Source: Saccostrea cucullata (lineage: Eukaryota). From it: DNA of 64,000 nucleotides. Positions 1,961 to 40,649 of the stretch are shown piece by piece. The DNA is taken from contig NW_026929278.1 of NCBI RefSeq assembly GCF_032062105.1, positions 186,001-250,000 on the forward strand, in the 5' to 3' direction. The notes under the pieces were generated by a model. It was given only the letters and a program-made list of their open reading frames with translations, did not search any database and was not told the DNA's origin. A program made the position numbers and the translations under genes. Numbering within the stretch: position 1 is the stretch's first letter; each line of letters starts with the position of its first letter.

Positions 1961-3559
1961 TTTTATGGAAAGTGTCTTCCTTATAAATAAAACTATAAGT
2001 ATAAGTTGCATGGATTACCACTTGTAGAATCAAACCTATATTCTTCTAAAATACAACACATATTATGCGACTTACACACGAACACTATTGTCACCTGTTT
2101 TGTAAGCAGGGATCAGTACGTATTGATCATGTAATCTAATTCTTGTTGCACTTCTGGATTATTGAATACAATTGGTTAAATATTTCATATTGCTCCGCAA
2201 TCGTTTAATACACTTTGAAACATGGATTTAATACATGTAATCAATTTTGACAAAGTGTTGAGGTCTTATTTGTCATTTCTGGCTCATCGTCCGATATTAA
2301 TGAAATATTGATGCCAGTTAAAGGATCGGGGTTCCCTATATTCATTTTTTTTTCAAAGGTAATCAAAGGTCCTTATTAATATCTATATATATGTCACCTG
2401 TAATATCCTGAACAGCAGGACTATAGTGCTAGGGTGAAGAAAGACATGAACACAATGGAGGATTATTTTTCAGATATTCGATATCCAGGCTATGTAAAGT
2501 TTTTTTTGTGATTAAAACGTTTGGAAGCAATTGTCGATTAATATAAATAAAAATATAAGATTTTGTAGTCTGTGTAGAATTTAACTTGATGCACTTGGGA
2601 TACAAGATTGAATTCCTTTGTGATGAGGAATATTACTTATATTAAAAGCATCAATTCCTTTGTTGGTAATTAATGTATAAGGAAGAGACGGATTGTTAAA
2701 CTTGCATATTCTTCAGTAAAGCACGGAGTTTAAAAAGCTTATGATTTGCAACATTCTTAATCACAGATCTTAGTCTATAATCTAGTGTCGAGCTTTCCTT
2801 GACCTTTTCAAAAAGACTATTTAGAAGTTTCAACGGAGCAGAGTAAAGTGTGGTGCAAATATGATGTAGACCAAACTGTTGGTTTTAAAAGATGGAAATA
2901 AATCAAAAGAGACATTGTGTAATAAAGAGATATGTAAGAGTAGATATTACAGTTTAAGAATTAGAGCATTTTTGATGATCAGTATAATTCACTTATTACA
3001 CATGTATTTCATTGATTGCAGTGCACCTTAAATAACATGGTACAATTTTCTTTTTAGATTCACGGCGGCCTTCAGCGAGTAAGTATAAAGACACGATACA
3101 GTTTGTAATATAGTCTCAATATTTGGATACATTACAGAATACGCTAATGAGCATTTATAATAAAAGAAAATGATATTTCGAGGAAAATGATTTAAAACTG
3201 ATTGATGGTTATAGATGTTGATAGTCATTCATTAAAAAAATTCTATTGCAACATCTATAATTACAGATCTTATTCTATAATCTAGCGTCGAGTTTTCCTT
3301 GACCTTCTTAAAAAGATTATTTAAAGGCTTCACAAAGACAGAATAAAATCCCTCGTTAAAAACGACCAGTTGCCGACGGTTTTTGAAGCAAGAATTGGAT
3401 TCTTCGGGTGACAGACGGCAGTTCATCGGCCGTTGTCTTGCCCGATTTCGACCTTTTTTTCGTCGGTCGACCAATTTTACGTCCATTCCCTAACAAAAAA
3501 AAATACTATAGTAAACTATAATTAACTATAGTTAACTATAGTTTACTATAGTACCAAAG

Positions 3560-4110
3560 AAAAAAACTTTGGAACTTTGATTTACTTTGGCGAAAACTTT
3601 GGAACTTTGATTTACTATGGCGAAAACTTTGGAACTTTGATTTACTATGGTAATAACTTTGGAACATTGATTTACTATGGCGAAAACTTTGGAACTTTGA
3701 TCAACTTTGTCGAACACTTTGGAACTTTGATTTACTATAGTAATAACTTTCGAACTTTGATTTACGATGGCGAAAACTATGGAACTTTGATTAACTTTAT
3801 CGAAAACTTTGGAACTTTGATTTACTTTGGCGAAAACTTTGGAACTTTGATTTACTATGGCGAACACTTTGGAACTTTGATTTACTATGATAAAAAACTT
3901 TGGAACTTTGATTTACTATGGCAAAAACTTTGGAACTTTGATTTACTATAGTAAAAACTTTGGAACTTTGATTTACTATGGTGAAAATTTTGGAACTTTG
4001 ATTTACTATGGCGAAAAATTTGGAACTTTGATTTACTATAGTAAAAACTTTGGAACTTTGATTCACTATAGTTAAAACTTTGGAACTTTTATTTACCATA
4101 GTTAAAATGT
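3560..4110. repeat. 30-bp tandem minisatellite (~18 units, GGAACTTTGATTTACTATGGCGAAAACTTT)
   Basis: Direct 30-bp periodicity. Preceded by CCCTAACAAAAA...ACTATAGT short repeats from 3488. Confidence 0.95.
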
Positions 4111-5121
4111 GAAACAACTTGAGTAAAAACTCCAGACTTCCCTTATCATATACAAGTGATGCAAACAGTTTATGTTAAAAATTTTTCATTGTAACATAGA
4201 TTACACTTGAAAATAAATAGTAACAATAAATTTTAAAATGAAATACAAAAATACATCTATGTCTTCTCTTCATTGTTTTAAACAAAGCATGATTTTAATT
4301 TTGTTTAAAACGGTATTTAAAACAGGTATACATACATCTGTACAATATATGAATAGATTCTTTAATATTTTGGTCGTTAATATGAATGTTTAGATTTTTC
4401 CTATGAAACTATGTAGAGTAATGAGCTTTCATTTATCACAATTAATGTTTCCTGTATTTTTCTATACACGAAAGTTCATTTTGACAAATAAGACACAGTC
4501 AGGATACAACCTATCATTTCAAATTATAAGTAAAAAATATTATAGTAAGACATGAAGATAAAGCAATGGAATGAAGATTAAAAAATAAATTCTATAAAAC
4601 ACATATACTTGAATTTTTCATCCTGAGGAAAATACTATAAACTTCATAAGAATGAAAACAGAAAAATACTCAACAAAAAGAATTAACACGACTTTGCATC
4701 AATCTATAAAAACACATATACACTTTGAAATATATAACAACGAATATTCTTTAATACAGCTTCTAAGAATAAATTAGGACAATTAAATTAAATGAAACAG
4801 ACAAAAATGATATTGCGTTATCTGGCATTCAATGCCTTAAATAAACAAATAAGTTGCTAAATATAATACAATACGTAAACTAGTAAAAGAAAAAAAAACA
4901 GCACTACAAAACTACTCACTCTATATATACATATAAAAACACATGCAATATAAAAACTGAAAGTCAAGAAACTTAATTGGCACTATTTAAATACACAATA
5001 CATACATGTACTGGTACGTCAAAAAATAAAAATAATTTTAAATGTCCTTTTCCTGGTATTTATAATAATTTAATAATCACAGTCGAAAATCACAAGGTTG
5101 AGCAATGGTTGTGAAAACAAC

Positions 5122-8152: not shown

Positions 8153-10109
8153 TGTCTACGTTGGTGACCGATTTCTTCAGTTAAAGTTGTTCGTCGACCA
8201 ACCTTCGATCATCATCCGGCCATCGGCGGTCAGTTTATTAAGTCAGTCGTCCGTCGTTCGACAATATAGGTGTCCAAAATTACGTCCGACAGTTAAAATC
8301 AAACAGTAGCTGAATGCTCGATGATCAGGCGACGATTGACCGACTTGTGATTATTTAACCTATAAAGGATACATAACACAAACAACATGTCAATGCATGG
8401 ATCGGTATATACTTTTTGAACGAAAATAACATAAATTATTATTCTATTAGACATAAGGAAATCTTAAACATCCCTTGCTACTAAAATATGCTTTTTTGCA
8501 ATTTTAAAGAGAATTTTGAACATATTTATAACATTGAGTGAGAATTGTACCACTTTTCTTTGCAAACCTATCTGAATATGGATCACCTATCTGAATATAG
8601 ATCTACGAAAAATATCGCTTATTTCTAAAGAAAAAAAAAACGACTTTGCTGTGTTCTTTATCCAAGTCATCAGTGTTCCTAGGGAAAATGTGACTGCTCC
8701 GTTCCGGCCAATCAAGTTCATGCAGCCGACAATACCAGAAAAATTTGGCCGCCCGATCATCGGCTTAATTGTGACCTAGGCATAAAGTGTGGTGCAAAAA
8801 TGATGTAGACCAAACTGTTGATTTCAAAAGATGGAATTATTCAATTTTTATTACTCATTTTTTTTATTGATTGCAGTGCAGCTCAAAGAACAGTTAAAAA
8901 GTACAATTTTTGCTTTTTAGATTTACGGCGGCATTCAGCAAGTAAGTATAAAGGCACGATACAGTTTGCAATACAGTCTCTATATTTGGATATTTTACTG
9001 AATATTTACGCTAATGAGCATTTATAATTTATAATGAGCATTTATAATATGAGTGTATGTATTTTTTGTATCTGATAAAATATAACTATTTGTGTTTTGT
9101 ATCTGTTGAAAACTTGCATATTTATAAAATGAAACATGAATTTTATAAAAATAATAGTTTGGTATATTTCGTCAATTTTTGTCAGTAATTATCAATGTTG
9201 TCCACGAACTTTACTGACAACCCTCGTATATAACCTAAAGTTTCATTTTCTTAACGTTCAATTTTATTAGATTAATAAAGATAACTTACACAAATATATT
9301 GGATTATTGTTTCCAAATTCCAGAGCCTGGTGATCCACCGTGTAAGTATAATTTTATATTGCTTTAATCGTTTTTTAATTAGCTTTATGAAAAGTAAATA
9401 TTTCGTAAAATGTTTTTCTTGAATTGCCTGTTGTATTTTTTTTTACACAATTCATTCCCGGAAAAAAATAGATTAAATTATCCCCCCCCAAAAAAAACCC
9501 AACACATAACTGGACATATTTTTGTTTGCGTATATAATTGTTTATCAGAAGGTTTGACAAAAACTCTTGATATATTGATAAAATGGATGTTTTCATTTCG
9601 TACAGATGGAAGTAATTAGAAAAAAAATCCTTCTCTTAGTCATTAACTGATTGAATTTATATGTATAACTTGCAGCATGTTAAGGTTTCCACAAATTTTG
9701 AACGTGTTCAAAACATAATATTACAGTGCAAGGTCGATTTTGATTTTTATTTGTACTGTATATAATTTAGTACGATCAATAAATATAAAGAGCTATCTTA
9801 AATATATAAAAACCAATATATTCTCAGGGTCTTATTGATACATTAGAATGCATTAAGAATATTCTACCTTTTCAATATCAGTGGTACGTTATGGCGTCTT
9901 AGAAGACGAGATGACGTCAACTTTAGAACACATAAAGTTTTATGGATATTGGTATTTAGAGATGTTTATTTATTTTGTTTCGCCATATCTCTCCTTTAAA
10001 TTTAAATCTGCAAGAGATGACGTCTTACATAAGAGGCTTCAACAGGTACATGTAACTTTGGAATTAGTCAAATTGTCGAAAGAGAACATGTCAATGAACT
10101 CTCCTTACA

Positions 10110-11151
10110 TTGTTCTCTTCAAATAAAATGCAGACCAACCCTGAAAATTTTCAGGCAATTTCTATTTGAAAGTAAAAATTGTTTTTGATTAGGATGGAAT
10201 CAAAATTCCTTGTGATGATGAAGTAAAGCTTCTAGGTATTACCATGGAGATCAAGTTGTCTTTTGATACACATATTACAATTATGTGTTAAAAGGCTGCA
10301 AGGCAATTAAATGTTCTTAAACGATTAGGAAACCACTTAACTAAAATAGGAAAGCTTACAATATATCACTCTATTATCAAGTCAAATTTTAGTTATTCCC
10401 TCTTAACATGGCATTTCTGTACTGAACCGAACACTCACAAAATAGAAAGATTTCCGAAAAGAGCATTGAGATTTATTTATGAAGATTATAAAAGTTTTTA
10501 TGAAAGTCTTTTACATGAATCTAAACTACCATCTCTGAAATCCAGAAGAATGCGTGCCATTGCTCTAGAAACTTTTAAAATTATTCAAGGTTTAAGTGCA
10601 ATCTTTTTTCAAGATCTGGTCGTTTTAAAAAAAAATAATTCATACAATTTTAGGTTTTGAAATACTGCAGAGGTCCCAAGACCAAGAACTAGAAGGTATG
10701 GGATAAAATAATTTAGGTATGAGGTAACAAAGCTCTGGAACTCTCTGTCCAATGAAGCCAGGCAAGCCTCATGACTAATGTTTATCTTTGCAGACGATCG
10801 TCATGAGTTATTGTTTTACAATATTGTGCTGTCTTAATCTTTTCTCTTTTTCATGTGTGCATTACATTTGTATTCTGTACCTGTTGCTTTCTTATGTTGG
10901 CTATTTTCTTTTCTTTGTGTATTTCTCAGATGTTCTGTCTTTTATTTCTTTTTTTTATGTGTGTTAATAAATGTCTTTGGTTAAATTAGTGCGTTTAAAT
11001 GTACTTCTGTCTTCGTGAAACTTTATGTAATAACTCTGCTCATATATGTATATACATTTATGTACATTTTATTAGTGCTTAATATGTTTCTATGATCTAG
11101 TCGGTAAGAGAGCTTTATAGCTTATGTCCTTTGTTATGTATATATAGTCAG
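10110..11151 (+). mobile_element. 5'-truncated, degenerate CR1/L2/Crack-group LINE (RT C-terminus + 3' UTR)
   Basis: Frame-disrupted motifs VKLLGIT, KAARQLNVLKRLG, LTWHFC, KRALRFIYEDY...LPSLKSRRMR...ETFKI, KLWNSL. Confidence 0.8.
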
Positions 11152-11598
11152 NNNNNNNNNNNNNNNNNNNNNNNNNNNNNNNNNNNNNNNNNNNNNNNNN
11201 NNNNNNNNNNNNNNNNNNNNNNNNNNNNNNNNNNNNNNNNNNNNNNNNNNNNNNNNNNNNNNNNNNNNNNNNNNNNNNNNNNNNNNNNNNNNNNNNNNNN
11301 NNNNNNNNNNNNNNNNNNNNNNNNNNNNNNNNNNNNNNNNNNNNNNNNNNNNNNNNNNNNNNNNNNNNNNNNNNNNNNNNNNNNNNNNNNNNNNNNNNNN
11401 NNNNNNNNNNNNNNNNNNNNNNNNNNNNNNNNNNNNNNNNNNNNNNNNNNNNNNNNNNNNNNNNNNNNNNNNNNNNNNNNNNNNNNNNNNNNNNNNNNNN
11501 NNNNNNNNNNNNNNNNNNNNNNNNNNNNNNNNNNNNNNNNNNNNNNNNNNNNNNNNNNNNNNNNNNNNNNNNNNNNNNNNNNNNNNNNNNNNNNNNNN
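11152..11598. other. Assembly gap (447 N)
   Basis: Run of N. Confidence 1.
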
Positions 11599-11882
11599 AA
11601 AGTAATGAATAAAACCCGTGCAATGCCTATTGCCTAAAAGTGAATACATGTAATTGTAATACATGTTCACTTTGTATTTTAAAAGTCTGATTTGTATATG
11701 GTTTTTCTAATACCTTTTAATGGCAATGATAAATATTTAAGCTGCGGTTTAACACAATATACACTATGAATACGAGTATATAAAAGTTCTGCATCTCTTG
11801 AAATTGGAGGAAGAAATGGAAACAAAAAGCAATATTCAAATGCAGATTAAAAAATTCGTTGTTCACTGCTTCTTTTTATTAA

Positions 11883-12459
11883 GGTAGTCTGATGCTCAGG
11901 TTTATAAAACTAGCAGTGAAGTAATCAAAAGTACTTATAAAAGTTTCTCTGAATCCAAATATATTTTTGCAGAAACTGCGAACTGGAATATCAACAATGC
12001 ATTTTCTAATTGCAAATTAGTCAACAAATATATTTTAGGTTAAAAATCTATAGGTATTCGAGCATTCAAAGAGATTGTCATGATTTTTATATTTATTTGG
12101 TATTTTTTGTCTTCTATTTCCGACACGTATTCTATAAAACGTAGTGAAAAAGGCTTTTGCTGTCATTGCAAGACACCACAAAACTCTTCTCATTTCATAT
12201 CATGCTAATAAACATTTGTATCTAAGGCTGGTTTCCAGATAATCTGATTTCCCTAAAACTGTATTATATTTTTTGACTCTTATAGGGTACGAATGGCAAC
12301 TTAAAAGTTTCTAAACTTCCAAAGACCTTGAACCTCATAGAGATGAATAAAATAAAAATTGTTGCATGGAAAAATTTCATTTTCAAGCTTCATTTTGATG
12401 CATTTCAAATTGAATACTAATTTTTGGAGTTATCTTTCCTGACTGAGGATCGGATATCC
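11883..12459. mobile_element. TTAA-flanked MITE (Kolobok/piggyBac-type non-autonomous)
   Basis: TTAA|GGTAGTCTGATGCTCAG ... CTGAGGATCGGATATCC|TTAA: imperfect 17-bp TIRs with TTAA on both sides. Confidence 0.65.
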
Positions 12460-12646
12460 TTAATTTCTTTTTCTCAGCGGATGTAAAAATAAATGGCTAT
12501 GAATATATGTAATTCTTGTGACAAGACCTTTCCAAGGACACCAACAACTTTTACCCACTGTTCCTGTCCTAGGAATTTGACCTACTGAAAAAAAACTTTA
12601 ACCTTAGACATTACGTGTTGAACTGTTAAATAGAGGGCTTTCATAA

Positions 12647-13112
12647 TTATGCCGCCTCGAGCGAAGACTGAACGATGTTTTTCATCTACGGGCTGTTTCT
12701 CGAAGATGGCTCGGACAATCTTCCTGAATTTTTTTTCAAGGGACAATAACTGGTTGAAGTTCCGTTTTGTGGTTATTCAGTTTCAAAATGGCTACCGTTG
12801 CCATGGAAACATGCAAAAAGCGACGAATTTTGTCCGAGGGTGTTCTCTCTGGTTCCTTGGATATTCGTCATGAAACTTTACTGATTTAATGATTAGTATC
12901 TGTAATTGAGCATGTTGCATTTAGAAGTTGCAAATTGTCAATAGTTGCCATGTAGACATGGAAAAGTGAATTTTTCTAACTTTGATTTGGAATGATACAA
13001 GTAGATGTTTGTCCAAGCTTAGCTGATGGGAGTTGTTTTAGTGAAAAAATTAAAGTGTCGTCCAGTTTCGAGCGAAATACGCTATTGCCTGTATTAACTG
13101 ACTTCCTAGTTC
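12647..13112 (+). mobile_element. Helentron/HINE-like element remnant (also at ~23900-24372)
   Basis: TTATGCCGCC...GAGCGAAG start; GCTATTGC...TTCCTAGTT end. Confidence 0.45.
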
Positions 13113-27286: not shown

Positions 27287-29790
27287 TCGTCGATAGTAAG
27301 CTGCTAATCCAAGGAAACTTCGAAGTTGTGACACAGTTTCGGGCTTTTTCCAGTTCCTTACAGCTTCAATTTTTGATGGGTCGGTTTTTATACCACTCTC
27401 AGATACAATATGTCCCAGAAAACTAACCTCACGTCTAAAATATTTGCACTTCTTAGCTTTTAGTTTTAAATTCACACTCTGTAGCCTGTCAAAGACTAAA
27501 TTAAGATTGTCAAGATGTTCATCAAAACTTCGACTGTACACAATAATATAATCAAGGTAAATCACTGCGACTTTCCACTGCAATCCAGTTAGTGCCTGTT
27601 CTATCACTCGTTGAAACGTTGCCGGGGCATTAAATAATCCAAATGGCACAACACTGTATTGATAAAGGCCTCCACGAGGTGTACCAAACGCTGTTTTCTC
27701 TTTGTCTTCTTCACGCATCGGAATAGATGGTATGCCATGTTTAAATCAAGTGACGAAAACCATGTACATCCAGCGAGAGAGTCAAGATCATCTGCCACCC
27801 GAGGTATGGGGAATGCGTCTTTAATAGTAACTATCTCCATGATTTGTCCTTTTTCTGTACTTACACAAGAGGTGAGGACCACGGGCTATTAGATCTCTCA
27901 ATCATCCCTTGTTCTGCCAGTTTCTGGAACTCCTCGTCCATAATTTCTCTCTTAAATATCGGAACCCTGTGCACTGTTTCCTTGAAGGTTACTTCCCCCT
28001 TCAATTTAATTCGATTCTCTCCGATCGTAGCACGTTCCTCGGGTTTACTTAAACGTCCTTAAACTTTACACTTTGCTCTTTTGTCATATTTTTACACGCA
28101 TCATTGAAAATTGGTTCTAGATATTCAAGCAGTCGACTATCCACTTACGTCACATTGCTCACTTCTGGAATGTTCACAGTTGAAACTGCATCCACAGGAA
28201 CAAACACTGCTATTTCAGAATTCTTCCTCACAATTACATCACGGTCATTTGGACATATATGCACATATATGATATTCTGGCCAGTAGTCGCATTTACTAA
28301 TTCTCGCACTGCAGCAAGTCAATAACTAAACACAAATATTTTTACTGGAACTAGAATACCACCAGTAACATTTGCACTACGCTGCGTTAATCACAATTTA
28401 ACAATGAGCTGGAACGAAACTATCCTCGATGCATTGTAAAAAATACCTCGCATAATTTCCTCGTTTTGTGACTTAAGGGTTCACAGATTAGATGCATAAT
28501 TCCACTGGCAATGAAACCTGGTGATAAAGTCTTGTCCTAATAAGTCACTTTTTACTTCTGCAACAAATACACGGAAAATCACTTGAAAACTTTTAAATGA
28601 AAGTAACATCGTGGCTGTTCCCATAACCTTTAACCTCCTGCCATCGGCTGCATGGAATATTTTCTTAACGCGCTCAAGTACAGGTCGATTTTCTGGAAGG
28701 ATGCTAAGATAAGTATCATCTATAATGAACGTATTTATTGCACCTGTGTCTAATTTCCACTCTACTGGCGTGCCCTCAACTAAACCATCTAACTTCATAC
28801 CGGACTTCCCTTGAATCTCTACAAAGTCCCCAGTTTCATCATTTTTAGAGCCATAATCCAAGTGCAGATTCTCAGCAACAACAGTCTGCGTTGGTACAGT
28901 AACATTTCCCTTACTAACAACGTCCGCAGTATCCCGCGATTGCTGCTTACCTATACAAGGCAGCTTTACAAACTCCTGTGCCAATGCATAGCCTACTGCC
29001 TCAACACTTTCACTTTTTAAAGGTTTTTGCAGTCTACTGTCATTTACATTTTTATTCTTAGGACAACTCTGTAGAAGTGTTGTGTTGAGTTACATTCGTA
29101 ACATTTCTTTATTCTCGGTACAGTTCATTATGTTGTACTTCACTGTTCAGGTTGATAAATCATTAACTTTCACTAATTTGGTAGTTTAATCCTGCATCCT
29201 CAAGCTGAGCATTTAAAGAACTGAACAACGCGTCCACTAGTCAGATGCTCATGCGTGTTTTCCGTTTTCACAAACATGTTGTAACAGTTTGGGCATTACT
29301 TTCGTAAATAAAAATCATCGATCCTCACTAAAACTAATTTTCTGGAATAGTCATAGTCGTATATATATGTAAGTCTTGAAGGTTGACTATTTTTGAAAAC
29401 CATTTCTACTATTTTAAAAACACAATAATTCGAGCGGTGTCACTGTATACCAATTTTCCTCCGCATACTAGCAACTATTCACATGATCACAATTTACGCA
29501 TCCCAATTTGAACACGGAAAGCTCACAATTTTCACGAGACAAAAAAAACTTTGTTCTTTGCCTGATTCCTTGGAAATACTTTGTCGCAATTTTCACATGT
29601 AAGATTGTAATTTTCAGTATCCACTATAGACTTTCTAAATCCAGATCCGTTCTTTTGAATAGTATACAAAGTAATATAAGATAATTTCCTCATCTTCACG
29701 TATAGAATCCACCGAATAAATCCACACACACAAAAATAATAAATTAAAATCACTGGAATGATGCAGAAAATCCCCCAGCTGCCAACAGTT
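27287..29790 (-). mobile_element. Degenerate Ty3/Gypsy retrotransposon internal region (aspartic protease + RT), 3'-truncated
   Basis: Protease WKLDTGA (28481-28984). RT motifs TIKDAFPIPRV, WFSSLDL, KTAF, VPFGLFNAPATFQR, YLDY (mutated YLDD), VSFLGH, LRSFLGLAAYYRR. Multiple frameshifts. PBS-like TGGCAGCTGGGGGATT at ~29784-29769. Confidence 0.9.
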
Positions 29791-30165
29791 TTAGAGCTGT
29801 CGAGCGGTAAACGGCTAAATTAATCCATTATTCGGTAACAATAATATTTCTCTGACTTAAAATACGATTAGTAAGTTTTATATACAATTTATTTACAGGG
29901 ACAGGTGCCCGTAAAACACATCACAATATTAAAATTTACACATAATCCACTATCTTCTGAATGGTCTATGTACATGTAACTCGCACGTAATACAGTAACT
30001 ATACTAATAAATTCCCAACGAAACAGTAACTCTGACCCAAAATTCCCCCCCCATATATTTACCCTCTGGCCGATGCTCAAAAGGAGCATCGCGTTCAAAA
30101 CAAAAGTGTTACGTAATGGTCAAACTAACCGATCCTCGCGAGGAGCATCGAGTAGCTCTGTCTAA
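29788..30165 (-). mobile_element. Possible 5' LTR of the Gypsy remnant
   Basis: Directly upstream of the PBS-like motif, with short degenerate inverted AGAGCT/AGCTCT ends. No second copy to confirm the boundaries. Confidence 0.35.
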
Positions 30166-31453
30166 AAATAGTTATATAAACAATGAGTGACCGTAAATAA
30201 TTACGTACACGTAACAATTTTTTCCCAGTTAAACTAAATTACTACACAACTGAAAGTGACCTCCGTAGAATATTGACCATGGGGTAAATATATACGAAAA
30301 GTGGGGTCATTTTTTGACTGTAAAAACTTTCCAGACCAGTAATTGTACGACTCCACACACGTTGAAAAATGACCCCCATAGCAATTTGACCCCTTACTTT
30401 TTTATACAATAAAACCTATATCTGAATGTTAGTAGGGTGATTTTTATGTACTTTAATCCTTTCCAACATTTATTTGATTGCATATATTAATAGTAGCATC
30501 ACAATCAATTTTATGGTATGGATTTATTTTTGTCTTGCAGAATTCGAATAAATATTTATTCATTGAGGATCATTAATTTATGATTATGTTTTGGCGTGGT
30601 TCTGTTCATTATTCAGAGGTTTTGTTCTGATATTGGTATGATATGTTTCTGATAACCATAAAATTTGAAAATTTCTACAAATCCAAAAACATAGCAAATA
30701 AGCAAGAAAACCAACGTAATTTAACTATATAAATTCAATTCCATTAGGTCTTACCTTTAAACTTGCATATTCATTTGTATGCATTTAGCTTCAAAATACA
30801 TACTTTTTAACTCCCTTATATAAGGGACTATACTTTTTCCTTATATACGGAAAATACCAACACATCGAGAACGTTCTTATAGTGAAACATGTATTAAAAA
30901 TCCTCAAAACTGGAAAAAATTACACCTGAGTGAATAATGGTTCAACCTTTAGAGATATCCATCAATTCATTTAAGGACTTCACTTTTCAACACTTTTACC
31001 CCACAGACACCTGAAAAATGGTTGCTGTAACATCCCTTTCTTCTGAGATTTTATAGACACTAACTTTGCAAAAACAAATAAACTCTTAGTTTATCATGGT
31101 ATTACTGCGATATATAAAGTCCTAGCACACACCGCCCAAAACTTAATTCCAAAGTAAAAGTTTAGAATTTTTGTGTAAAGGTGTGTCAAACTCCAAGGTA
31201 AAGGTCAAAAGGTCTAAATTAGTTGTGCACAAAAAAGGTCTTGTCACAAAAATACACCTGTGAAATATGAAGGCAATAGTCCCACCCAGTCTAAAGTTAT
31301 GGGCAAGGTTCAATTTTTCGAATAAATAGACATACAGACGGTCGTAGAGGTAAAAAATATACTCTACAGAAAAAGGAACGCATATTCAGGTTAAACATGT
31401 TAGTTTAAGTTTTCAGTTTAAACCTTATTTTTTAAAGTGATTTTAGAGTGTGT

Positions 31454-33109
31454 TGTGATAATATGACCGAGTGAAATGAACAGATTTTGAGTGATAATTA
31501 TATTCTCTGATCTAGTGTTAAAATAACATAATTATAGACCTTGACCGCTAGACAATTGATGCCACCTGTACTTGAGTTAAATTGTTAATTATTTTCCAAT
31601 TATGTCAATTGTGCATTAATGCCTTGAGTAACTCTTCATTATAATTGTTCTTTCCTTATTGTTATAAATTGGTTGTTTTGTACACAATCTTCAGTTGGAA
31701 ACTGGACCTTGCACTGTCCACGCCGACACACAGATCGAGTAGAAACGCCAGGTTTTGGACCGTTAAAAAATCATTAAACGAAGTACCGACTTTTGTATTT
31801 TCTACCGGCTATATTTGGTGGAGAATCCTAAGGGTAATTTACCCAGGGCTACTGCATATACTTTGTAGTAGTTAGATCCCAGTACTCTCACACAGCTGAG
31901 CGCGTTTACCAACCTTTATACAAGAATCCCCCTAATCATGGACTTATTTCCATTTGTTCCTGCTTGGATGCGACCAGTCCGACCGCGCTTCACCTCGCAA
32001 CAGTGTGAACGCTGCGGATTAAGACACGGATGGACCGTCTGCAACGCACTGACGTCATCATGTCTTAAGTGTGGAAGAAGAGGACACTATGCTAGGATGT
32101 GTAAAACACGGACATTCCGTACCATCTGTGCTGTCTCTTCAGTACCGACGCGCTCAGTCGAAACACAGATTGACAAAACATGTACGGTGCGAAGGAAATC
32201 AAAAAGGAAGCAAACCAGAGACAGAGAAAGAATAATAAAATTTCGGACAACCCACAAAGAAAAAGAATCTTTGAGTGAAATGCCTTTCTCTTCAGTAAGT
32301 GTCGTTGAAATTCATGCTGAAACTTTGGAAACACAAGCTGAAAAGTTCCTTGAACAAGCGGCTCTCTACAAATCGGATGTTCGTTTTCATAAAAACAAAT
32401 GGATGTGTGAGCGGAAAACGTTTCATGTTCAACTATCGGAGAAAGACAAGACTATCAGAGAACTTCAGGAAAAACTTGTAGCTGCGTCAACTGAGCTTGA
32501 GGAGTCGAAGAAAGCTATAAAAGGTATATCTGACTATGAGTTTTCAAGCCAAGACCAAAAATCACAGATTTTTTCCCTGCTCAAGCAAAACAAATATGCT
32601 GAACCATTTCTTGCCTATAGAAGAGCAATTTACAGTGGTCCGCCCCGTGGAGGTCGAAACCAGCATACAAGAAATTCAAATTTTGCCAGAAAAGCTCCCA
32701 CCAACAGTAGACAAACTTCGAAACACGAGGACGTGTTTCGGGGGGGCGACGGGGTACTATGACCGAGTGAAATGAACAGATTTTGAGTGATAATTATATT
32801 CTCTGATCTAGTGTTAAAATAACATGATTATAGACCTTGACCGCTAGACAATTGATGCCACCTTACTTGAATTAAATTGTTAATTATTTTCCAATTATGT
32901 CAATTATGAATTAATGCCTTTGAGTAACTCTTCATTATAATTGTTCTTTCATTATTGTTATAAATTGGTTGTTTTGTACACAATCTTCAGTTGGAAACTG
33001 GACCTTGCACTATCCACGCCGACACACAGATCGAGTAGAAACGCCAAGTTTTGGACCGTTAATAAATCATTAAACGAAGTACCGACTTGTGTATTTTCTA
33101 CCGGTTATA
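31454..33109 (+). mobile_element. 1.66-kb non-autonomous LTR retroelement (LTR-PBS-ORF-PPT-LTR)
   Basis: 360-bp direct repeats at 31454-31813 and 32750-33109 (~16 differences by eye). PBS TGGTGGAGAAT at 31816; G-rich PPT at 32740-32749. No TSD recognised. Confidence 0.9.
31938..32762 (+). CDS. Gag-nucleocapsid-like double zinc knuckle + coiled-coil protein (274 aa)
   Basis: CERCGLRHGWTVC and CLKCGRRGHYARMC (CX2CX4HX4C), a basic patch, and heptad-like LSEKDKTIRELQEKLVAASTELEESKK. Stop codon lies within the 3' LTR. Confidence 0.75.
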   Translation: MDLFPFVPAWMRPVRPRFTSQQCERCGLRHGWTVCNALTSSCLKCGRRGHYARMCKTRTFRTICAVSSVPTRSVETQIDKTCTVRRKSKRKQTRDRERIIKFRTTHKEKESLSEMPFSSVSVVEIHAETLETQAEKFLEQAALYKSDVRFHKNKWMCERKTFHVQLSEKDKTIRELQEKLVAASTELEESKKAIKGISDYEFSSQDQKSQIFSLLKQNKYAEPFLAYRRAIYSGPPRGGRNQHTRNSNFARKAPTNSRQTSKHEDVFRGGDGVL

Positions 33110-35235
33110 ATAAAATCAAACATGTCCTATGTTGCCAAGTGAGAATTAAGTTGATGTCGCCTCTTAGCATATTTCGTTTGCGACTTCACGTCTCAGGGCT
33201 AGTTGATTTTCGATGTACAGACGTCTTGCACGAATACCTGCTCCTCTCCGTCTCTTGCAAACAATTTCTGCTATTTATGCTAAATTAAGCAGTCTATACA
33301 GCAGTTCTGCTGATGTTCCTGCTTGGGCCTGGTATCCCGCGGTCGGCCAATTCTTAGTTTGTCATCCCTGTTACTAGGTGGTGGAGACCTACGTTTAAAC
33401 GCCGAAAAGCCGATTGATTGAGCGCTAGCAACTACGTTAGTCAAACTTCCTTGAATACGTATGCTCGGCTTCACGTTTGTGCATTCTGGGAAAACTTTGA
33501 GAACTACTATAGATAGACCGTACAATAACAATTTCGTTTTATCATGTAGTAGCATTGAAAACTATGTTTATTTATTGTGTAGCTTACACTGTAAAGACCA
33601 CTACATATACGAATACTCCAAATTTTCCGGGTTTTTTTTCTTAAAAAAAGCCCGAGTCATTATCTGATTGTTCTAAACAAGGACAAGGGAGGTGTTTTTA
33701 CGTCTAAGCACAACCAAAATAGACTCTTATTTCTGATTGGCCATTAATGGTCAATTAAGCCAATCTGATAAATTCCAGAAACAAAAATTTTCGCTAAAAA
33801 TAACGTATAAATCCAATTATTTATATAAAGATTTATTCCGATAAGTATGGCTTTTAACCTAACATTTCTTGACAAAGATGACCTAAAAGACCAAGCTACT
33901 TCACATCTTCATAATTCGGATCTCTCTGGATTTCTTTATACAACAAACACTTTGAGTTATTTTCTATATTCATTTACACTCCCCTGTATTTTCTTTGCTA
34001 CATTACCAAGAAATTTTTTTCTTAAACCAGCTCATACAATGCCTCAATCGGCATCTTCTCCATATTAAATATCCCCCCCTTTGGTAAAGGTCATACATGT
34101 TTCGTTGCGCCAAAACTCCAATAGGTCAACTCCCTCGTTTCTTTACCTACGTGTCTATAAAATAGGCTTCACAAAACAATTATAATTTGATCAGTCCTAT
34201 TCTCCAGCCAAAATTAAAAAAAAATCTGCAAAATAAATTACTTGATCACGGATCCACCTTTCTGTGTTTAAAGATTGCTTCGACGCTAGCTCCTTACAAG
34301 CTCACTTTGTGTACACCAATGCAGTCGCAACTTCAGATTGCGTAGCTCCCGTTGGCATCATTGTGATAGCCTTGTTGCGTTCATCTTTGTTTATGCGTGG
34401 CATAGAAGCATCAGCATTGAAATTAATCAAATCTTAAATATGAATTTAATAGAATTGTTTATTGTTTCACTAAATCCAAAATATCAATGAAAATGGACCT
34501 CCAATTTCCAAGAAATTATGTTATACATTTTTTTCATTTACATGATTAATCGAAGGAAACAATTTAGCAATTGGGTTTTAAAAGCCTATGTTGTCCTTTA
34601 AATAGTTCACAGGTATCCCATGATAAAAAATCATAGTTATTCTATATACTTTTTTCAAAATTTCTTAATGAGTAAAATAATATGCGTTTCTTTTTCTGTT
34701 GAGTATATATTCCCCCGAAATTTCGTTTACGGGGGCATAAGTATAATATGTAAAGTAACAACTTTTTTTAAAAATCCAACATTTGTCTTTTTTTACTATT
34801 GGTAAAAAAAACTCCTAAAATCATCATATGAAAGTACAAGTAGAACAGGAAAAACAATGCTACATTTGCCAATTTTTCACACAATACATTTTACAGGTTC
34901 TGAGCTAACCACTGTTTGTTTCTCTTGTATCATTGTTCAGAGGGAATTAATTTCATACTTATTTTTACAAATTAAATCATCCCAATTTTTTAAAGTTTGA
35001 AACTTCATTCATATGAAACCAAATTTATATATATATATATAAAATCTTATTTTCTATGCTAGCGCCCGTTTACGCGCGAGTTTTAAAAGTAGGAATCAAT
35101 AACGTTAAACTTTTTTGAAAAATTAACTTAAAGCCATTTCATGATTCAGCTGTTTGGAAAAAAAGAAGGTTTACTCATCATGTTTTTTTTTTTTAAATAT
35201 ATTGATATTCATTTTTTTATCTTTTCTTTTTAAAG

Positions 35236-38200
35236 GAACATCCAGCACAAAGGAAACAATACTCAAGCATTTCAAAGATTGGTTTTTTCACGTATACAAA
35301 GATATAAAGATTATTCGACTTTACTTTGGGAAAAATATACCATCAAACATAGAGATGATTGTTCTGGTAATTGATGCCTTGGAACAAATTAAAGATTCTA
35401 CATTTTATTTTCACAAAATGAAATTTCCAATCAAATGTAAACTGTGGAAATTCCCTTCTGAAGAAGGCGCACTGGTCAACTTTCATGAGAACAGAGAAGA
35501 ATATTTTGGCAAAAAATATTATGCGCACAAAGAGTCTCTAAAAAGTATTGAACATAGTTTGAAAAAAATATCTAAGAAGCTCTTTGAAAAGCATTCTAAT
35601 TTGGAAATTGTCTCTGTATCTGGATTTCGGTCAGAAAGAGAAGGGACAAGAATTACTCCTGAGTTATGTATTGTGATGTATTGTTCCTGCAAATCAGTCG
35701 TTCCTTTAAATGAAGCTGAATTTCCAAAATGTATCAATGGAATAAAAACAGATGTACGTGAAGGATTCTTTTATCTTTTTCCAAATGATGGATTCTTTAA
35801 AAGTTCCTCTGAAGAACTTAATCCATTGAGAATTGGTGCCAGCATAGGAAGAAAAGGTAATATGAAGCTACGATAAATCTCTGAAAAAATGTTTTATTTC
35901 TTAGAAAAACTCTATTCTTATGAAAGAAAATGCCTTTGAAAATCACATAAATGTTCTTTACATGGACGTTAAAAATTAAATGTAAATATATATATTTTTA
36001 AAGAATTTATTTAACATGAACATGTACTCTTTTGTCGCCCAAGTGGGCAGTGGTTAGAACGTCTGATTGAGAGTCACGAAGTAGGGTGTTGATCCATACA
36101 TTGCGGGTGTTTAACCCACTGTGGGATGTGGAGACCGATCCTTTAGAAGGGACTGTATATAAACCAATGTCGCGTATCGTACATGTAATTAGTGCTGGTA
36201 CGAGAAATATCCTTCTCTTTTATTGTCGTAAGTGTCGAATATACAACAAAATTTAAAGCTCTCCATCTGCATGTGATGGCGTCTCCGTATAAGTGGAAAA
36301 AAAATCAAGAGAGACGTAAAACCCCATACTAACAAACAAATGTAAACTAAGTTAGATTTTCATTTAATCTTTAGATTCTATAAAATCTCAACAAAATTGA
36401 ACTATTTGTCTTTAGAACTTGCACAGATACCAACGAGGAAAAATCGTTTCTTCATAACTATAACATTTTCACGCATAATATTTTTGCAATAAATTTTTCC
36501 TCGTGGTCTTATTACGTGCCTAATACCTTTACATTTTCATTTCTAACAAGAGAACCAATTTCAATACATTTTGACCCTCATGGTGGCTCAAATTTGCTCC
36601 GGGAACAGAAGGGCGTGAGTTCGAATATTTTCGATGAAAATTTAGCAACTGTTCCGTCGGCATGCTCTCGGTATTTTTAAAATCATATAGGGACCAGTGT
36701 CACAAAGGGTTTTGGTTCAATAGGCCTCTTCTTTACTCCTTGCAAAATATTTTACAGCAGTTAAGGAAAAGTTTCCCCAAGAGTAATGTCGAACAGTATA
36801 TTTGAGAAGTAGGGTATATCAGATGTAAATGCTAAGAAGGATTATTAGAAAATTGAAAAATTTATAGAATGTTAATAAATCAATAATTACAAAACATTCC
36901 TCTCTTCCAAATTTCAATATAACCATTCCCTTGAAAAATTTAGCCAATGAAATCGTAAATATATGGCCATAGAATTGGTCTTTCGCAAAAATAATTGTTT
37001 TAAATGATTCCAATTCTACATATAAGTACTCTGAAGTATATATTTACAAAATGCTTGAAGTCTTGTTAACCAGTAATTTTTTACGCTTTTAAGGGAAATT
37101 TATATTCTGATAAGTGAGATAACTCTTATTGATATAAATGTCTATTATTCCTTTATAGATTTGCTAAGTTGAAGTGTCATTTTGTCCAATTTTGCCCATC
37201 AAGCTATGCTTTAATTATTTGTTTTTTACTCATAAAATACATTTCTTTAGAAAAAAAATATTAAAGTTCAAGCAACATTTTATATAAGTGAGTAGACGGT
37301 TAATGAACCTTAAATCAGGTTTTCGAACACTCTATTGGAATTCCCATAGGTATCACAAGCATCCCCGTAACCAGAACATCCATTTCTGTTTTTATATGAA
37401 GCGGGGTTTATTCAAAAACTTCAATACGAAAATGAAAAAAAAAAACAATCAAACTTTCTATATAGCGACGACGTATTATCAATTAAGAAAAGATACTTCC
37501 ATTAATATGTCGACTCGATATGTCCCAGTGAACTTCAAATAAAAGACATCACAGAGTGTAACATATCTGTGATGTGTTTGGATGTTTTACTTATTATAGA
37601 TAATTAAGGCAAACTAACAGCTTCATTGCATGACAAACGACATGACTTTTCCTTATTCATGTAGTAATATACCACAATAACACACATGTTGTTTATTCTA
37701 TACTCACGATCACTTTTCTTTTAAAATAGGCAGGTTTATGACAAATAAGTTGATGTTAAAGTCAGTGTTGATTAAAAATAACCTGTCATTAGGTCGTTTG
37801 TGAGTTGACTTATTTCATACCATGTTTAAGCGGTTTTTCTTTTAAATTAGACTGACTAAAAAATGTTCCTTATACCCGATTTTAACAAAAAATCAAGGCA
37901 GATTTATTTGACCAATCGGGAAAACCATTTCCCTCTTAGTGAGTGATCCAACCTCTTGAACTCCCAGGGTTTTTGTTAAATACCCTGCTCAAAAGTTTGT
38001 ATTTATTACAGTGTACAGGAATATATTTTATTTTATGAAATCGTTTACTACTCGTCATCTCCACTTTGTTATTGGCTGACAGGCTGATAGAATAAGAAAC
38101 ATGCTTTCTAAACAAAAGCTTTGTGTTTATTTGTTATACATTTTTTATTTTGAAAAATGTTACACAAAATATTGCAAAAAATTGATTGTCTATTTTAATT

Positions 38201-39898
38201 TATGCATGTGTTTAGTCAATAGACCTACAGACATAACTAAGTGTATAGGAGACATTGATTTGGGGAAAAAACAAACTACCAAAGGGTCATAATGAGAGTA
38301 ATTAAGATTTTCAGAATGATTAAACATTACCTTATTTAGAGTTTCATTTTGAGATTATTAACTTAACTTTAAGTGACCAATGGAGAATCTATATATATTT
38401 AAAACGCATTTTATAATAAAGGAGAATGCCGTGATTCTATAAAACTGGTCATCCAACACATTGTTTGACTTTTGAAAAAATTCTCAAAGTGCATGAAAAT
38501 ACATACTGAATCGATTGACAATAACATGAAAATTTACAACTTAAATATGAAAACCTTCTAGTTCATAATATATATTGGAACAATTCAAAGAAAATGTGCA
38601 AATACGAATAGGTTTCGATTAATATTTGAAGTAAAACAATACAAGTATTTATATAAGAGCAATCTTATGTTTTCTTTTCAAATATAATTTCAGGAGATTA
38701 CAAGGAAGGTACCCTTGGTGGGTTTGTTACCTTAAGAACAGGAGAGTTGGGCTTAATAACTTGTGCACATGTCTTCTTCGATTTTGCAAAAAGCAACTCT
38801 CCGAATCTGAGACAACCATTCGAGATAGTACAGCCTTCCAGTAATTGTGCCCCAAATCCAAATGTTTGTGGAGTTCACCATGCATCAGTTTTCCCAAATA
38901 ATTATTACAAAGATGTTTCAGTTGATGCAACGGTCGTAAAGCTTGAGTGCCGTATGCCTAATAGAGGATTATTTTCAATACAGAGAGTTTCAGAATTGAC
39001 AGAATGTGGTATGTGCAAAGGAGAAATAAAACTAGCAAAGCACTAGAGCTGTTATATCTTCCCTTTTCATTTATTGTAATTTTTAAATCAGAAACCTTTT
39101 CATGTTCTAGAAATGAAATAAGAAAACATTTCAACTATGGTATCAAAATTCTCTAAAGGATAAAATTATTTTTTCCTACGTAAAAAAAATTAACTGCATT
39201 GCTACATTATTATTTCCAGTTAAAGTAGTTGGACAAACAGAATTTTGCATTTTTTCAAAGGCAAGCTCACATTAAGCAGTGAGAGAGGAAACCCTGACAA
39301 AAATTAATTAATTTATAGACTAATTTTTGGAGAAAGTGATTTTTTATCCAATTATGATATTATAAATGTTGTGGTATCCTAGGAAATATTTAAAATTTGG
39401 ACAAAATTTCATTCAACGTTTTACAAATGGTTTAACAAGGATGTTTTTTTAGGTTTCAGCTTAGAAAGACTTCCAGAATATTCAAGTGGCGCTACTCGCG
39501 ACTACAAGTCTGATCAAGAGTCGCGTAATAATGCATGTATCAAATGCGGCGCTAAAAGTGGATTAACAAGAGGCTTAATACGATTAGAAGGAATGGCTGC
39601 AAAATATGGAGATCCTCAATTGTCCTTAACTAATCCAATATCACAGGCTTCACATATATATCGTTCACAGATAGAAATATCTGGAACACCAACATTTCCT
39701 TTTGCAGTTGAAGGAGATTCTGGATCCTTTGTTTTCCAAGTCGACTCTGCAGGAGGTGAAGATCAGCTTGTCTGCATAGGGATGATTGTAGGAGGTACTT
39801 CTTACAATACTGCCTGTGTAACGCCGATTGAAAGTGTTCTTGGGGCACTGGATGTAAAAATGAACAAATTTTCCACAGAAAAAATGGATGAATCATAA
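35236..39898 (+). CDS. Spliced NAL1-like trypsin-fold (clan PA) serine protease, first exon not found
   Basis: Exons 35236-35856, 38694-39008 and 39453-39898, with phase-1 GT-AG introns, give ~459 aa with no stops. Motifs KHSNL...CIVMYC..K..VP...FP..INGIKTDVREG, LRIGASIG, GTLGGFV, ITCAHV (His), VDAT (Asp), KCGAKSGLTRG, EGDSGS (Ser), IGMIVGG. Confidence 0.85.
36033..36340 (+). mobile_element. tRNA-derived SINE with Deu/Nin-like core (intronic, degenerate)
   Basis: A-box GGCAGTGGTTAG, core GGAGACCGATCCTTTAGAAG, tail AACAAACAAA. Homologous to 40793-41094. Confidence 0.7.
37395..38060 (+). mobile_element. Highly decayed Penelope-like (Naiad-type) RT fragment in protease intron
   Basis: Broken translations YEAGFIQKL, DDVLSI, YVDSICPSELQIKDITE, CLDVLL, GKLTASLHDKRHDF, CSNIP. 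Confidence 0.6.
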
Positions 39899-40649
39899 GA
39901 AAATTATTATTTGAATAAGTCCTTATAGGACCGTAATTTTGTGGCAATAACATGTTTAATATCTTTCAAGGATTACTATATTTAATTATTTTGTGCATAT
40001 ATTATGAGACTCATAAACAGTCTTTATGTTAACCATATAACATATGCTTTACCATTGTATTGCCATGAGATGAATTTGAAAAAAAAAGACTTTGTTATGA
40101 TATTATGAATCCTCTTATGTATGTTCCAATATACCATTATCTCTTTGGTCTTGGACTTTTTGTCTCACAGTTGATTCGCTACAAAACATGTTCTTCAAAA
40201 GATTTCGTTTTAAACAAGGTGATCTACTAAAAAACAAGGTAATGATACATTTGTATTTACAACATTGTTTGAAATAAACATTTCGCAAACATCATGGTCT
40301 ACTTTATGGCCTTTTTCCACAATCTGTTTTGATGACGCAGAGAAAGAATCAAGACCTTTCAGTTTAAACTGAAAGCCAAATTGAAAGGTGGCTCTCACTT
40401 ACTTGGTAGTGGCTATTCAAAGATTGAATGACAGATAAGTTTCAGTAACCTTTCAGTTATCATTCAATTAGATTTCAGCTCCTTGCAGTCACCATTCAGC
40501 GGACACAAAAAACCTTTAAGTTCGTTGTCATTATGCTTATGCTTTCAGTTGAAATATGCATATTTCTTTTTAAATCCACTATCTGAACTTACTTTCAAAA
40601 TAATAGGAATATTCATAACTATAGGTTAATAACTGTTATCAATATGCTG

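Follow-up and report, generated by a model that had tools for sequence, protein, structure and literature searches.

Positions 35236-39898 of a 64,000-nucleotide (nt) stretch of Saccostrea cucullata DNA (NCBI RefSeq GCF_032062105.1, contig NW_026929278.1; hereafter, the window) hold, on the plus strand, a spliced gene for a protease related to rice NAL1. Profile searches and structural models showed that the predicted protein contains a NAL1-type serine endopeptidase module, in which a chymotrypsin-fold protease carrying a His-Asp-Ser triad comes after a small pro-like domain. The module is quite likely to be catalytically active. We consider a cytosolic location quite probable and, from domain architecture only, we lean, at somewhat better than even chances, towards a role as an effector protease of invertebrate innate immunity.

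A spliced and transcribed gene

The joined three-exon frame consists of 459 codons and a single terminal stop; the remaining two frames contain 31 and 33 stops. All three exons have an AG acceptor, GT donors close exons 1 and 2, and every junction is in phase 1. The joint 35856/38694 is present in assembled contigs of sequencing runs X1 (shorter side 30 letters) and X2 (116 letters), and the joint 39008/39453 in an X1 contig (255 letters) and in one raw read of run X13; neither was seen in run X14. X2 is a metatranscriptome, X1 is RNA by guess only, and about half of each of X13 and X14 was covered. Since intron-free joints are what transcripts yield, we treat the X1 contigs as RNA-derived despite the guessed type of the run. 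The model also matched the annotated Ostrea edulis protein XP_056002635 (52.6% over 464 columns), with the alignment spanning both junctions. The gene is real, spliced and transcribed. An earlier reading of the same letters (the original prediction) had proposed three phase-1 exons, a protein of about 459 amino acids (aa) and a set of protease motifs, and all of these were found in the joined frame, with both joints in RNA-derived contigs.

Fold and catalytic residues of the protease

The named motifs start at residues 119 (HSNL), 145 (IVMYC), 170 (KTDVREG), 212 (GTLG), 229 (TCAHV), 283 (VDA), 342 (KCGAKSGLTRG) and 399 (GDSGS), and the triad His232-Asp284-Ser401 is intact. A search with exon 1 gave 315 clusters of homologues at 50% identity, of which 150 were listed. 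His232, Ser401 and GDSG were invariant in the 51 aligned rows covering the full module, and Asp284 was Asp in 46 of them and Glu in 5; among the 150 homologues, 59 of the 60 that reach GDSG kept the triad. The original prediction had noted the lack of an IVGG start and of GDSGGP. The protein indeed has no activation N-terminus and contains neither GDSGG nor GDSGGP; the letters IVGG do occur, at 423-426, though within the second barrel and hence not as an activation N-terminus.

A profile of 53 homologues searched against the PDB returned NAL1 for all of the top nine matches (E 4e-10 to 3e-9; next match, E 0.06), and the single sequence of P0001, the nearest named relative, returned no match. 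The full-length fold was taken from an AlphaFold2 model of the 49%-identical paralogue P0012 (predicted local distance difference test score, pLDDT, 88.7) and not of the gene's own full chain. Foldseek with this model placed NAL1 first (E 1e-14; the rows listed of ranks 1-34 were all NAL1), followed by alpha-lytic and Streptomyces proteases (5e-10). For the protease domain only, NAL1 scored Z 21.4 over about 228 residues and the alpha-lytic and Streptomyces proteases Z 21.1-21.5 over about 185, compared with 13-16 for HtrA and about 11.5-12 for S1A proteases and FAM111A. In a language-model search with the full module the nearest clusters were bacterial, cnidarian and plant NAL1, the atlas cluster being the sole source for cnidarian membership.

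The preference of the original prediction for NAL1 over animal S1A trypsins therefore stands: the PDB profile search, Foldseek and the superposition of the ATP domain described below all rank NAL1 first, and the outcomes named beforehand as contradicting it (best matches to S1A or HtrA proteases, or unsupported junctions) did not occur. The original prediction did not notice that the catalytic domain fits alpha-lytic-type proteases just as well.

The gene belongs to the broad NAL1-type clan and lies outside the Pfam definition of the plant NAL1 family. The last exon alone matched Nal1_C at E 6e-4 and 19.5 bits, under the 26.1 cut-off, and exon 1 had no match; the Nal1_C cut-off was reached by 3 of 67 homologues. 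Peptidase_S64 had no match in the exons and reached its cut-off in one of the 67 homologues, over a 97-residue stretch. No match to trypsin (PF00089) was found in the animal proteins scanned, and none to PDZ in the exons or in the homologues scanned; the chain stops 58 residues past Ser401.

A putative nucleotide-binding domain

The AlphaFold2 model of exon 1 (mean pLDDT 88.4) comprises a KH-II-like subdomain (residues 1-70, N1) and a second alpha/beta domain. N1 matched ribosomal S3 KH-type domains with VIA-align Z 5.5-6.0, a middling score, and we saw no sequence sign that N1 and the ATP-domain-like part arose by duplication. Residues 99-179 superposed on residues 92-173 of rice NAL1 (Z 6.1, root-mean-square deviation (rmsd) 2.5, 75 aligned, 20% identity), at rank 1 of 755 chains; the ATP-binding domain of NAL1 comprises residues 89-172 (PMC12012508).

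With the NAL1 stretch numbered as in PMC12012508, R120, K123, K139, D166 and V167 lie opposite R131, R134, K152, D172 and V173 of the oyster protein. K152 is present in all 51 family rows and D172 in 49; of the 150 homologues, 148 have K152, 145 have D172 and 131 have a basic residue at position 131. The NAL1 mutant K139A is reported to aggregate and lose activity, with ATP having a structural role and not being hydrolysed (PMC12012508). Given the conservation of the ligand residues, the small domain is probably a binding site for ATP-Mg, as in rice NAL1, or for a similar nucleotide.

In a language-model search with the ATP-like domain the nearest entries were small proteins bearing NAL1_N, with low recognition. 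Separately, an ESM Atlas query with positions 35493-35789 found stand-alone proteins of 82-102 aa that resemble the ATP-domain-like part (score 0.89-0.92, low recognition), two of the clusters being 57-67% viral. Such proteins could be free mimics of the pro-domain or inhibitors.

Table 1. Features of the gene, in window coordinates
Feature	Position	Strand	Description
Coding exon 1 (first identified)	35236..35856	+	Residues 1-206; phase-1 entry via AG acceptor; two small alpha/beta subdomains, then beginning of protease domain
Subdomain N1	35238..35447	+	Residues 1-70; type-II-KH-like alpha/beta fold; retained in close oyster paralogues
NAL1 ATP-binding-domain-like (pro-like) domain	35532..35774	+	Residues 99-179; HSNL, R131, K152, D172-V173-R174-E175-G176
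Intron 1	35857..38693	+	GT..AG, 2837 nt; joint in X1 and X2 contigs
Coding exon 2	38694..39008	+	First protease barrel: GTLG, catalytic His232 (38768-38770), Asp284 (38924-38926)
Intron 2	39009..39452	+	GT..AG, 444 nt; joint in X1 contig and one X13 read
Last coding exon	39453..39898	+	Second barrel: K-x-G-x-x-SGLT-x-G, Ser401 (39719-39721) in GDSGS, stop codon
3' untranslated region, minimum extent	39899..40064	+	Spliced X1 contig reaches 40064

An expanded animal family with exchanged partner domains

Twenty look-ups and the named matches placed members in oysters, clams, ark shell, scallops, freshwater mussels, Dreissena and the brachiopod Lingula. The original prediction had spoken of a patchy distribution or ancient horizontal transfer; the family is greatly expanded in bivalves and Lingula and is no rarity. 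S. cucullata itself has at least 8 loci, and paralogue identity is low (37-68%).

Pfam scans covered 83 of the 150 listed homologues, picked by length, and 18 of the 83 carried an added domain at or above the cut-off: ankyrin in eight, DUF4559 in two, NHL in two, and CARD-NACHT, DED, nSTAND3, Roc-COR, MORC/zf-CW and HSP70 as single cases. Fusions to STAND or death-fold sensors were seen in P0042, P0130, P0131/P0171 and P0045, and P0001 carries HEPN_DZIP3 with an RxxxxxH motif. In the fusions checked, the added domain is N-terminal and the protease module follows; the triad is complete in 16 of 22 fusions, and the remaining 6 records end before the Ser. Eight Logan records hold the nSTAND3 fusion as a protein of 919 aa, and there is also a RefSeq model of it. 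Sensor-fused members include the CARD-NACHT protein XP_013389014 of Lingula and, in O. edulis, the nSTAND3 protein XP_048750883 and the HEPN protein XP_056002635.

Incomplete homologue records (n=90) stop near the position of intron 2 in 46 cases and of intron 1 in 10, and we read them as single exons taken from genomic DNA, a source verified for P0131 and P0030 only. The position of intron 2 thus appears to be common to the family. Because several of these records carry ankyrin or nSTAND3 in the same open frame, such fusions are unlikely to be artefacts of gene models.

A tree of 50 rows and 236 columns (33 animal homologues, the S. cucullata gene, 12 of 45 bacterial and 4 fungal sequences; plants absent) placed the gene within an oyster clade (support 0.99); its neighbours there (0.95) are the HEPN-fused protein and three paralogues that stand alone. 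CARD-NACHT, Roc-COR and MORC are each borne by one of three protease domains that group closely together (0.999). Deep nodes were weak, with support of 0.63-0.92. As a separate observation, P0077, P0103, P0112, P0133 and P0171 have a coiled-coil-like tail past the protease (weak Pfam coiled-coil matches), which may possibly aid oligomerisation.

The 5' end of the gene

Exon 1 opens at a splice acceptor, hence the 5' end of the gene is absent from the model. A splice-signal scan for an upstream exon gave five candidates, none supported, and tblastn with 156 homologues (E<0.01), then with 10 more, found no match outside the three exons. Pfam had 0 matches in 65 of the 70 upstream plus-strand open reading frames (ORFs) of at least 55 aa; the scan omitted four repeat-derived or overlapping ORFs and a zf-CCHC ORF, the latter scanned separately. 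Among the joints listed for reads over 29500-40600, there was no GT..AG joint into 35236, and the X1 contig ends at 35235, immediately before exon 1. One joint, 33649-35216 with 7 extra letters, sits in poly-T/A tracts and was discarded as a repeat artefact. The close paralogues P0158 and P0012 are annotated as stand-alone proteins that start a few residues from the exon 1 start or at the equivalent of Met40, so that a short 5' exon and a missing domain are equally plausible.

About 2 kb upstream of exon 1 lies a 1.65-kb element (31460-33112) with long direct repeats (31624-31813 and 32920-33109; 97%), which encloses a 296-codon zinc-knuckle ORF (31872-32762, plus strand). Contigs and reads carry the empty-site joint, so the element looks like a polymorphic insertion.

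The failure to find an upstream exon, the transposon-rich surroundings and the very low read depth in X13 and X14 would fit a decaying or neutral duplicate of a birth-and-death family, one that is transcribed and has lost its 5' part and its role. We regard this as very improbable: the 459-codon frame is open, splicing is canonical in transcripts, the conserved residues are intact, synonymous differences are in excess per site, and P0158 and P0012 are annotated as stand-alone from nearly the same start.

Distant relatives and origin

A bacterial subfamily (45 aligned sequences) matched the animal profile over 284 columns that include the pro-like domain (probability 99.5). It looks secreted, and neither a Lys nor an Asp is conserved in its ATP-site columns; for this reason nucleotide binding may be a property of the cytosolic forms. 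By a crude test, a hydrophobic N-terminal stretch was present in 42 of the 45 bacterial sequences (first 60 residues) and in 4 of 50 animal ones (first 40 residues). Apparently secreted bacterial NAL1-like preproenzymes (L001-L070) are widespread, in Planctomycetota, Nitrospirota, Gemmatimonadota, Actinomycetota and others, three of which (L002, L037, L062) have a second related ORF close by. Two viral entries of BFVD (A0A0N9MU75 and A0A7S9XDX3) matched the whole module in Foldseek at E 3e-15 and 5e-13; other viral proteases scored much lower.

These relatives raise the question of whether the oyster protein is itself a secreted or lysosomal zymogen of the alpha-lytic kind. In that case a cut in the variable linker (about residues 180-196) would remove the N-terminal pro-region and free a protease for digestion or antimicrobial defence. 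The alpha-lytic and Streptomyces proteases equal NAL1 in their fit to the catalytic domain, exon 1 weakly matched the alpha-lytic pro region (E 0.44), the bacterial relatives align through their pro-like domain and look secreted, and the model has no 5' end where a signal could be read. The partner domains, however, are of kinds found in the cytosol, a hydrophobic N-terminus is rare among the animal members, the invariant Lys is common to NAL1 and not to the secreted bacterial group, and NAL1 aligns over the longer region, which together make the zymogen improbable.

Close prokaryotic or viral relatives were not found by pattern scans of GTDB (18 stretches, 0 confirmed) and IMG/VR (47 stretches, 0 confirmed) or by tblastn of phages and plasmids, all of which detect close relatives only. 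Together with spliceosomal introns at shared positions and the many paralogues, this argues against recent horizontal transfer, which we consider unlikely. Given distant relatives in bacteria, fungi, plants and viruses, the origin may be old vertical descent with losses or an ancient transfer.

Proposed function

How might the module act as a cytosolic immune effector? The small domain would serve as a folding and control element that orders the active site. In bivalves and brachiopods the module would be an exchangeable C-terminal effector placed behind sensor, oligomerising or adaptor domains, and being brought together by one of these domains, whether its own or that of a partner protein, would switch the protease on by proximity. 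The activated protease might then cut itself or a signalling or death substrate, like caspases downstream of NLRs. The S. cucullata gene, a paralogue of the oyster expansion, would be either a stand-alone effector or the bearer of a 5' partner domain. There are precedents: the activity of NAL1 requires its hexamer, SltB and Ssy5 process themselves (PMC4985261), and in the bacterial Avs2-trypsin system a STAND tetramer activates a fused trypsin (10.64898/2026.08.25.746987). Bivalve expansions mixing STAND, death-fold, HEPN, ankyrin and HSP70 domains have been described, in accounts whose accessible parts make no mention of a NAL1-type protease (PMC8195603, PMC9646362), and NACHT and HEPN_DZIP3 proteins of the pearl oyster are discussed there as expanded candidate immune genes (PMC9646362). 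The original prediction had guessed at immune or cell-death signalling; the guess gains comparative support from the domain fusions of homologues, and no partner domain was found for the gene itself.

Several observations weigh against an immune effector with an ATP-type control domain. Sixty-five of the 83 homologues scanned have no added Pfam domain at the cut-off, and three of the partners, ankyrin, NHL and HSP70, also occur outside immunity; for the gene itself, the upstream tblastn and Pfam searches gave neither a further exon nor a partner domain. The two oligo-dT runs (X13 and X14) cover the exons at a read depth of about 0-2, pointing to low expression. Among the allelic differences listed, 13 codons are non-synonymous and 11 synonymous (rough ratio of non-synonymous to synonymous polymorphism per site, pN/pS, 0.35), which suggests purifying rather than positive selection. 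As for the ATP domain, Z 6.1 is in the middling range of the tool, NAL1 was absent from the list of a wide VIA search with the exon-1 model, Foldseek had no match below E 0.001, and Pfam NAL1_N had no match in any protein scanned. One of the six ATP contacts of NAL1, R122, is unmatched, lying opposite Glu133, and a bridge through the bacterial profile shifts the Asp register by two residues; the end points of the superposition (177:171 and 179:173) favour D172 = D166. We accepted the match despite its middling score because its position before the protease and the conserved residues agree.

The characterised relatives NAL1, Ssy5 and SltB act on transcription factors and not in immunity, which also counts against our proposal and is the starting point for a different one: a cytosolic signalling protease outside immunity, with transcription factors or co-repressors as its substrates in development or stress sensing, the fused domains being adaptors to substrates or stress. 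NAL1 cuts FZP (PMC12012508), SltB cuts itself and SltA, and Ssy5 activates Stp1/2 (PMC4985261). Weak Peptidase_S64 matches in the family and the many homologues (most of them) without a recognised added domain are in keeping with this. The lineage-specific expansion, the low identity of paralogues and the swapping of partners (CARD-NACHT, DED, nSTAND3, Roc-COR, MORC, HEPN) fit conflict systems better, and we judge such a signalling role rather unlikely.

More specifically, and only tentatively, the immune effector could be part of an inflammasome-like pathway of marine invertebrates, in which the caspase is replaced by a NAL1-type serine protease that binds a nucleotide, is clustered by NACHT, nSTAND3, Roc-COR, CARD, DED, HEPN or ankyrin domains and has its ATP domain as a gate. 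The gene described here would then be a stand-alone or adaptor-recruited effector, with the same module used in fungal and bacterial conflict.

In plants, NAL1 has been studied as a gene for yield, and its product forms an unusual protease cage stabilised by ATP. The expanded animal branch carries its architecture into metazoans, and the conserved Lys/Asp pair offers a handle on why a protease binds ATP. The recurrent fusion behind NLR-type and death-fold domains makes the module a candidate for the proteolytic output of the large, little-understood immune repertoires inside bivalve cells, of relevance to comparative immunology and shellfish disease. Domain surveys would miss the family, as it falls mostly under Pfam cut-offs and nearly all the animal records examined are annotated 'uncharacterized' or 'hypothetical'. 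We did not find the animal NAL1-type branch or its NLR-type fusions described in the literature covered, which did not extend to subscription journals, the first NAL1 structure papers or supplements (for example, the domain tables of PMC8195603).

Surroundings of the gene

The window has about 32% guanine plus cytosine and is rich in retroelement remnants; the nearest named relatives of the protease are all from oysters. Positions 47922-51665 hold perfect inverted repeats of 558, 275 and 241 nt enclosing reverse transcriptase and GIY-YIG ORFs (50113-51364, plus strand), which we take to be Penelope-like; the repeats arose by a very recent inverted duplication or are an artefact of assembly. 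A segmental duplication (9745-14612 and 21666-25807) has a spacing of about 11.3-12 kb and 88-96% identity. Broken retroelement remnants with RVT_1 matches lie on the minus strand at 27272-29089 and 41840-43819, one by appearance of the long-terminal-repeat type and one of the long-interspersed-element type. Minisatellite arrays of 30 nt at 1669-2004 and 3471-4197 read as long repetitive ORFs on both strands.

Comparison with known systems

The closest known system is rice NAL1 (PDB 7Y77, 8PMG, 8PN1 and 8HAU; Pfam Nal1_C PF25819 and NAL1_N PF25608). As in NAL1, an ATP-binding-domain-like module stands immediately N-terminal to a chymotrypsin-fold protease without an activation N-terminus, the motifs GTLG, T-x-x-HV, K-x-G-x-x-x-G-x-T-x-G and F-x-x-x-GDSG are present, and most ATP-contact residues appear to be retained. 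Unlike NAL1, with which it shares about 15% identity in structural alignment, the oyster protein has a KH-II-like subdomain in place of the hexamer-forming N-terminus and a Glu for one ATP-contact Arg; the domains are oriented differently in the monomer model (Foldseek rmsd about 20 Å over the whole chain), and members of its family are joined to animal immune-type domains.

The alpha-lytic protease and Streptomyces proteases A and B, which we take to be MEROPS S1E, are as close as NAL1 to the catalytic domain (Z about 21, rmsd 2.1-2.2) and likewise have a pro-like alpha/beta region upstream. They are secreted preproenzymes, with a shorter aligned region and a pro-region match of only E 0.44, and they gave no sequence-profile match under E 0.06. 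Animal S1A trypsins, HtrA and FAM111A share the chymotrypsin fold and the order of the triad; the oyster protein differs from them in having no activation IVGG, no GDSGGP and no PDZ, and their Z values are far under 21.

Fungal Ssy5 and SltB (Pfam Peptidase_S64) are similar as chymotrypsin-like proteases of the cell interior, which have a regulatory N-terminal part and cleave themselves; the Peptidase_S64 matches, however, are short and mostly under the cut-off, and the known role of Ssy5 and SltB is in nutrient or cation signalling. The animal profile also matched fungal ankyrin-protease proteins (E 4e-13 to 5e-10). Fungal P0165, P0168 and P0169 have long ankyrin arrays followed by an S64/Nal1_C protease, a layout like that of the bivalve ankyrin fusions.

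PADLOC assigned no family to the first member, and any one PADLOC family to at most 3 of 53 members. A similar logic is found in the bacterial Avs2-trypsin-MBL and trypsin-HamAB systems, where a STAND sensor oligomerises a fused trypsin-like domain and an effector is thereby activated (10.64898/2026.08.25.746987). This likeness is an analogy only; the protease of those bacterial systems sits in a phage-defence operon.

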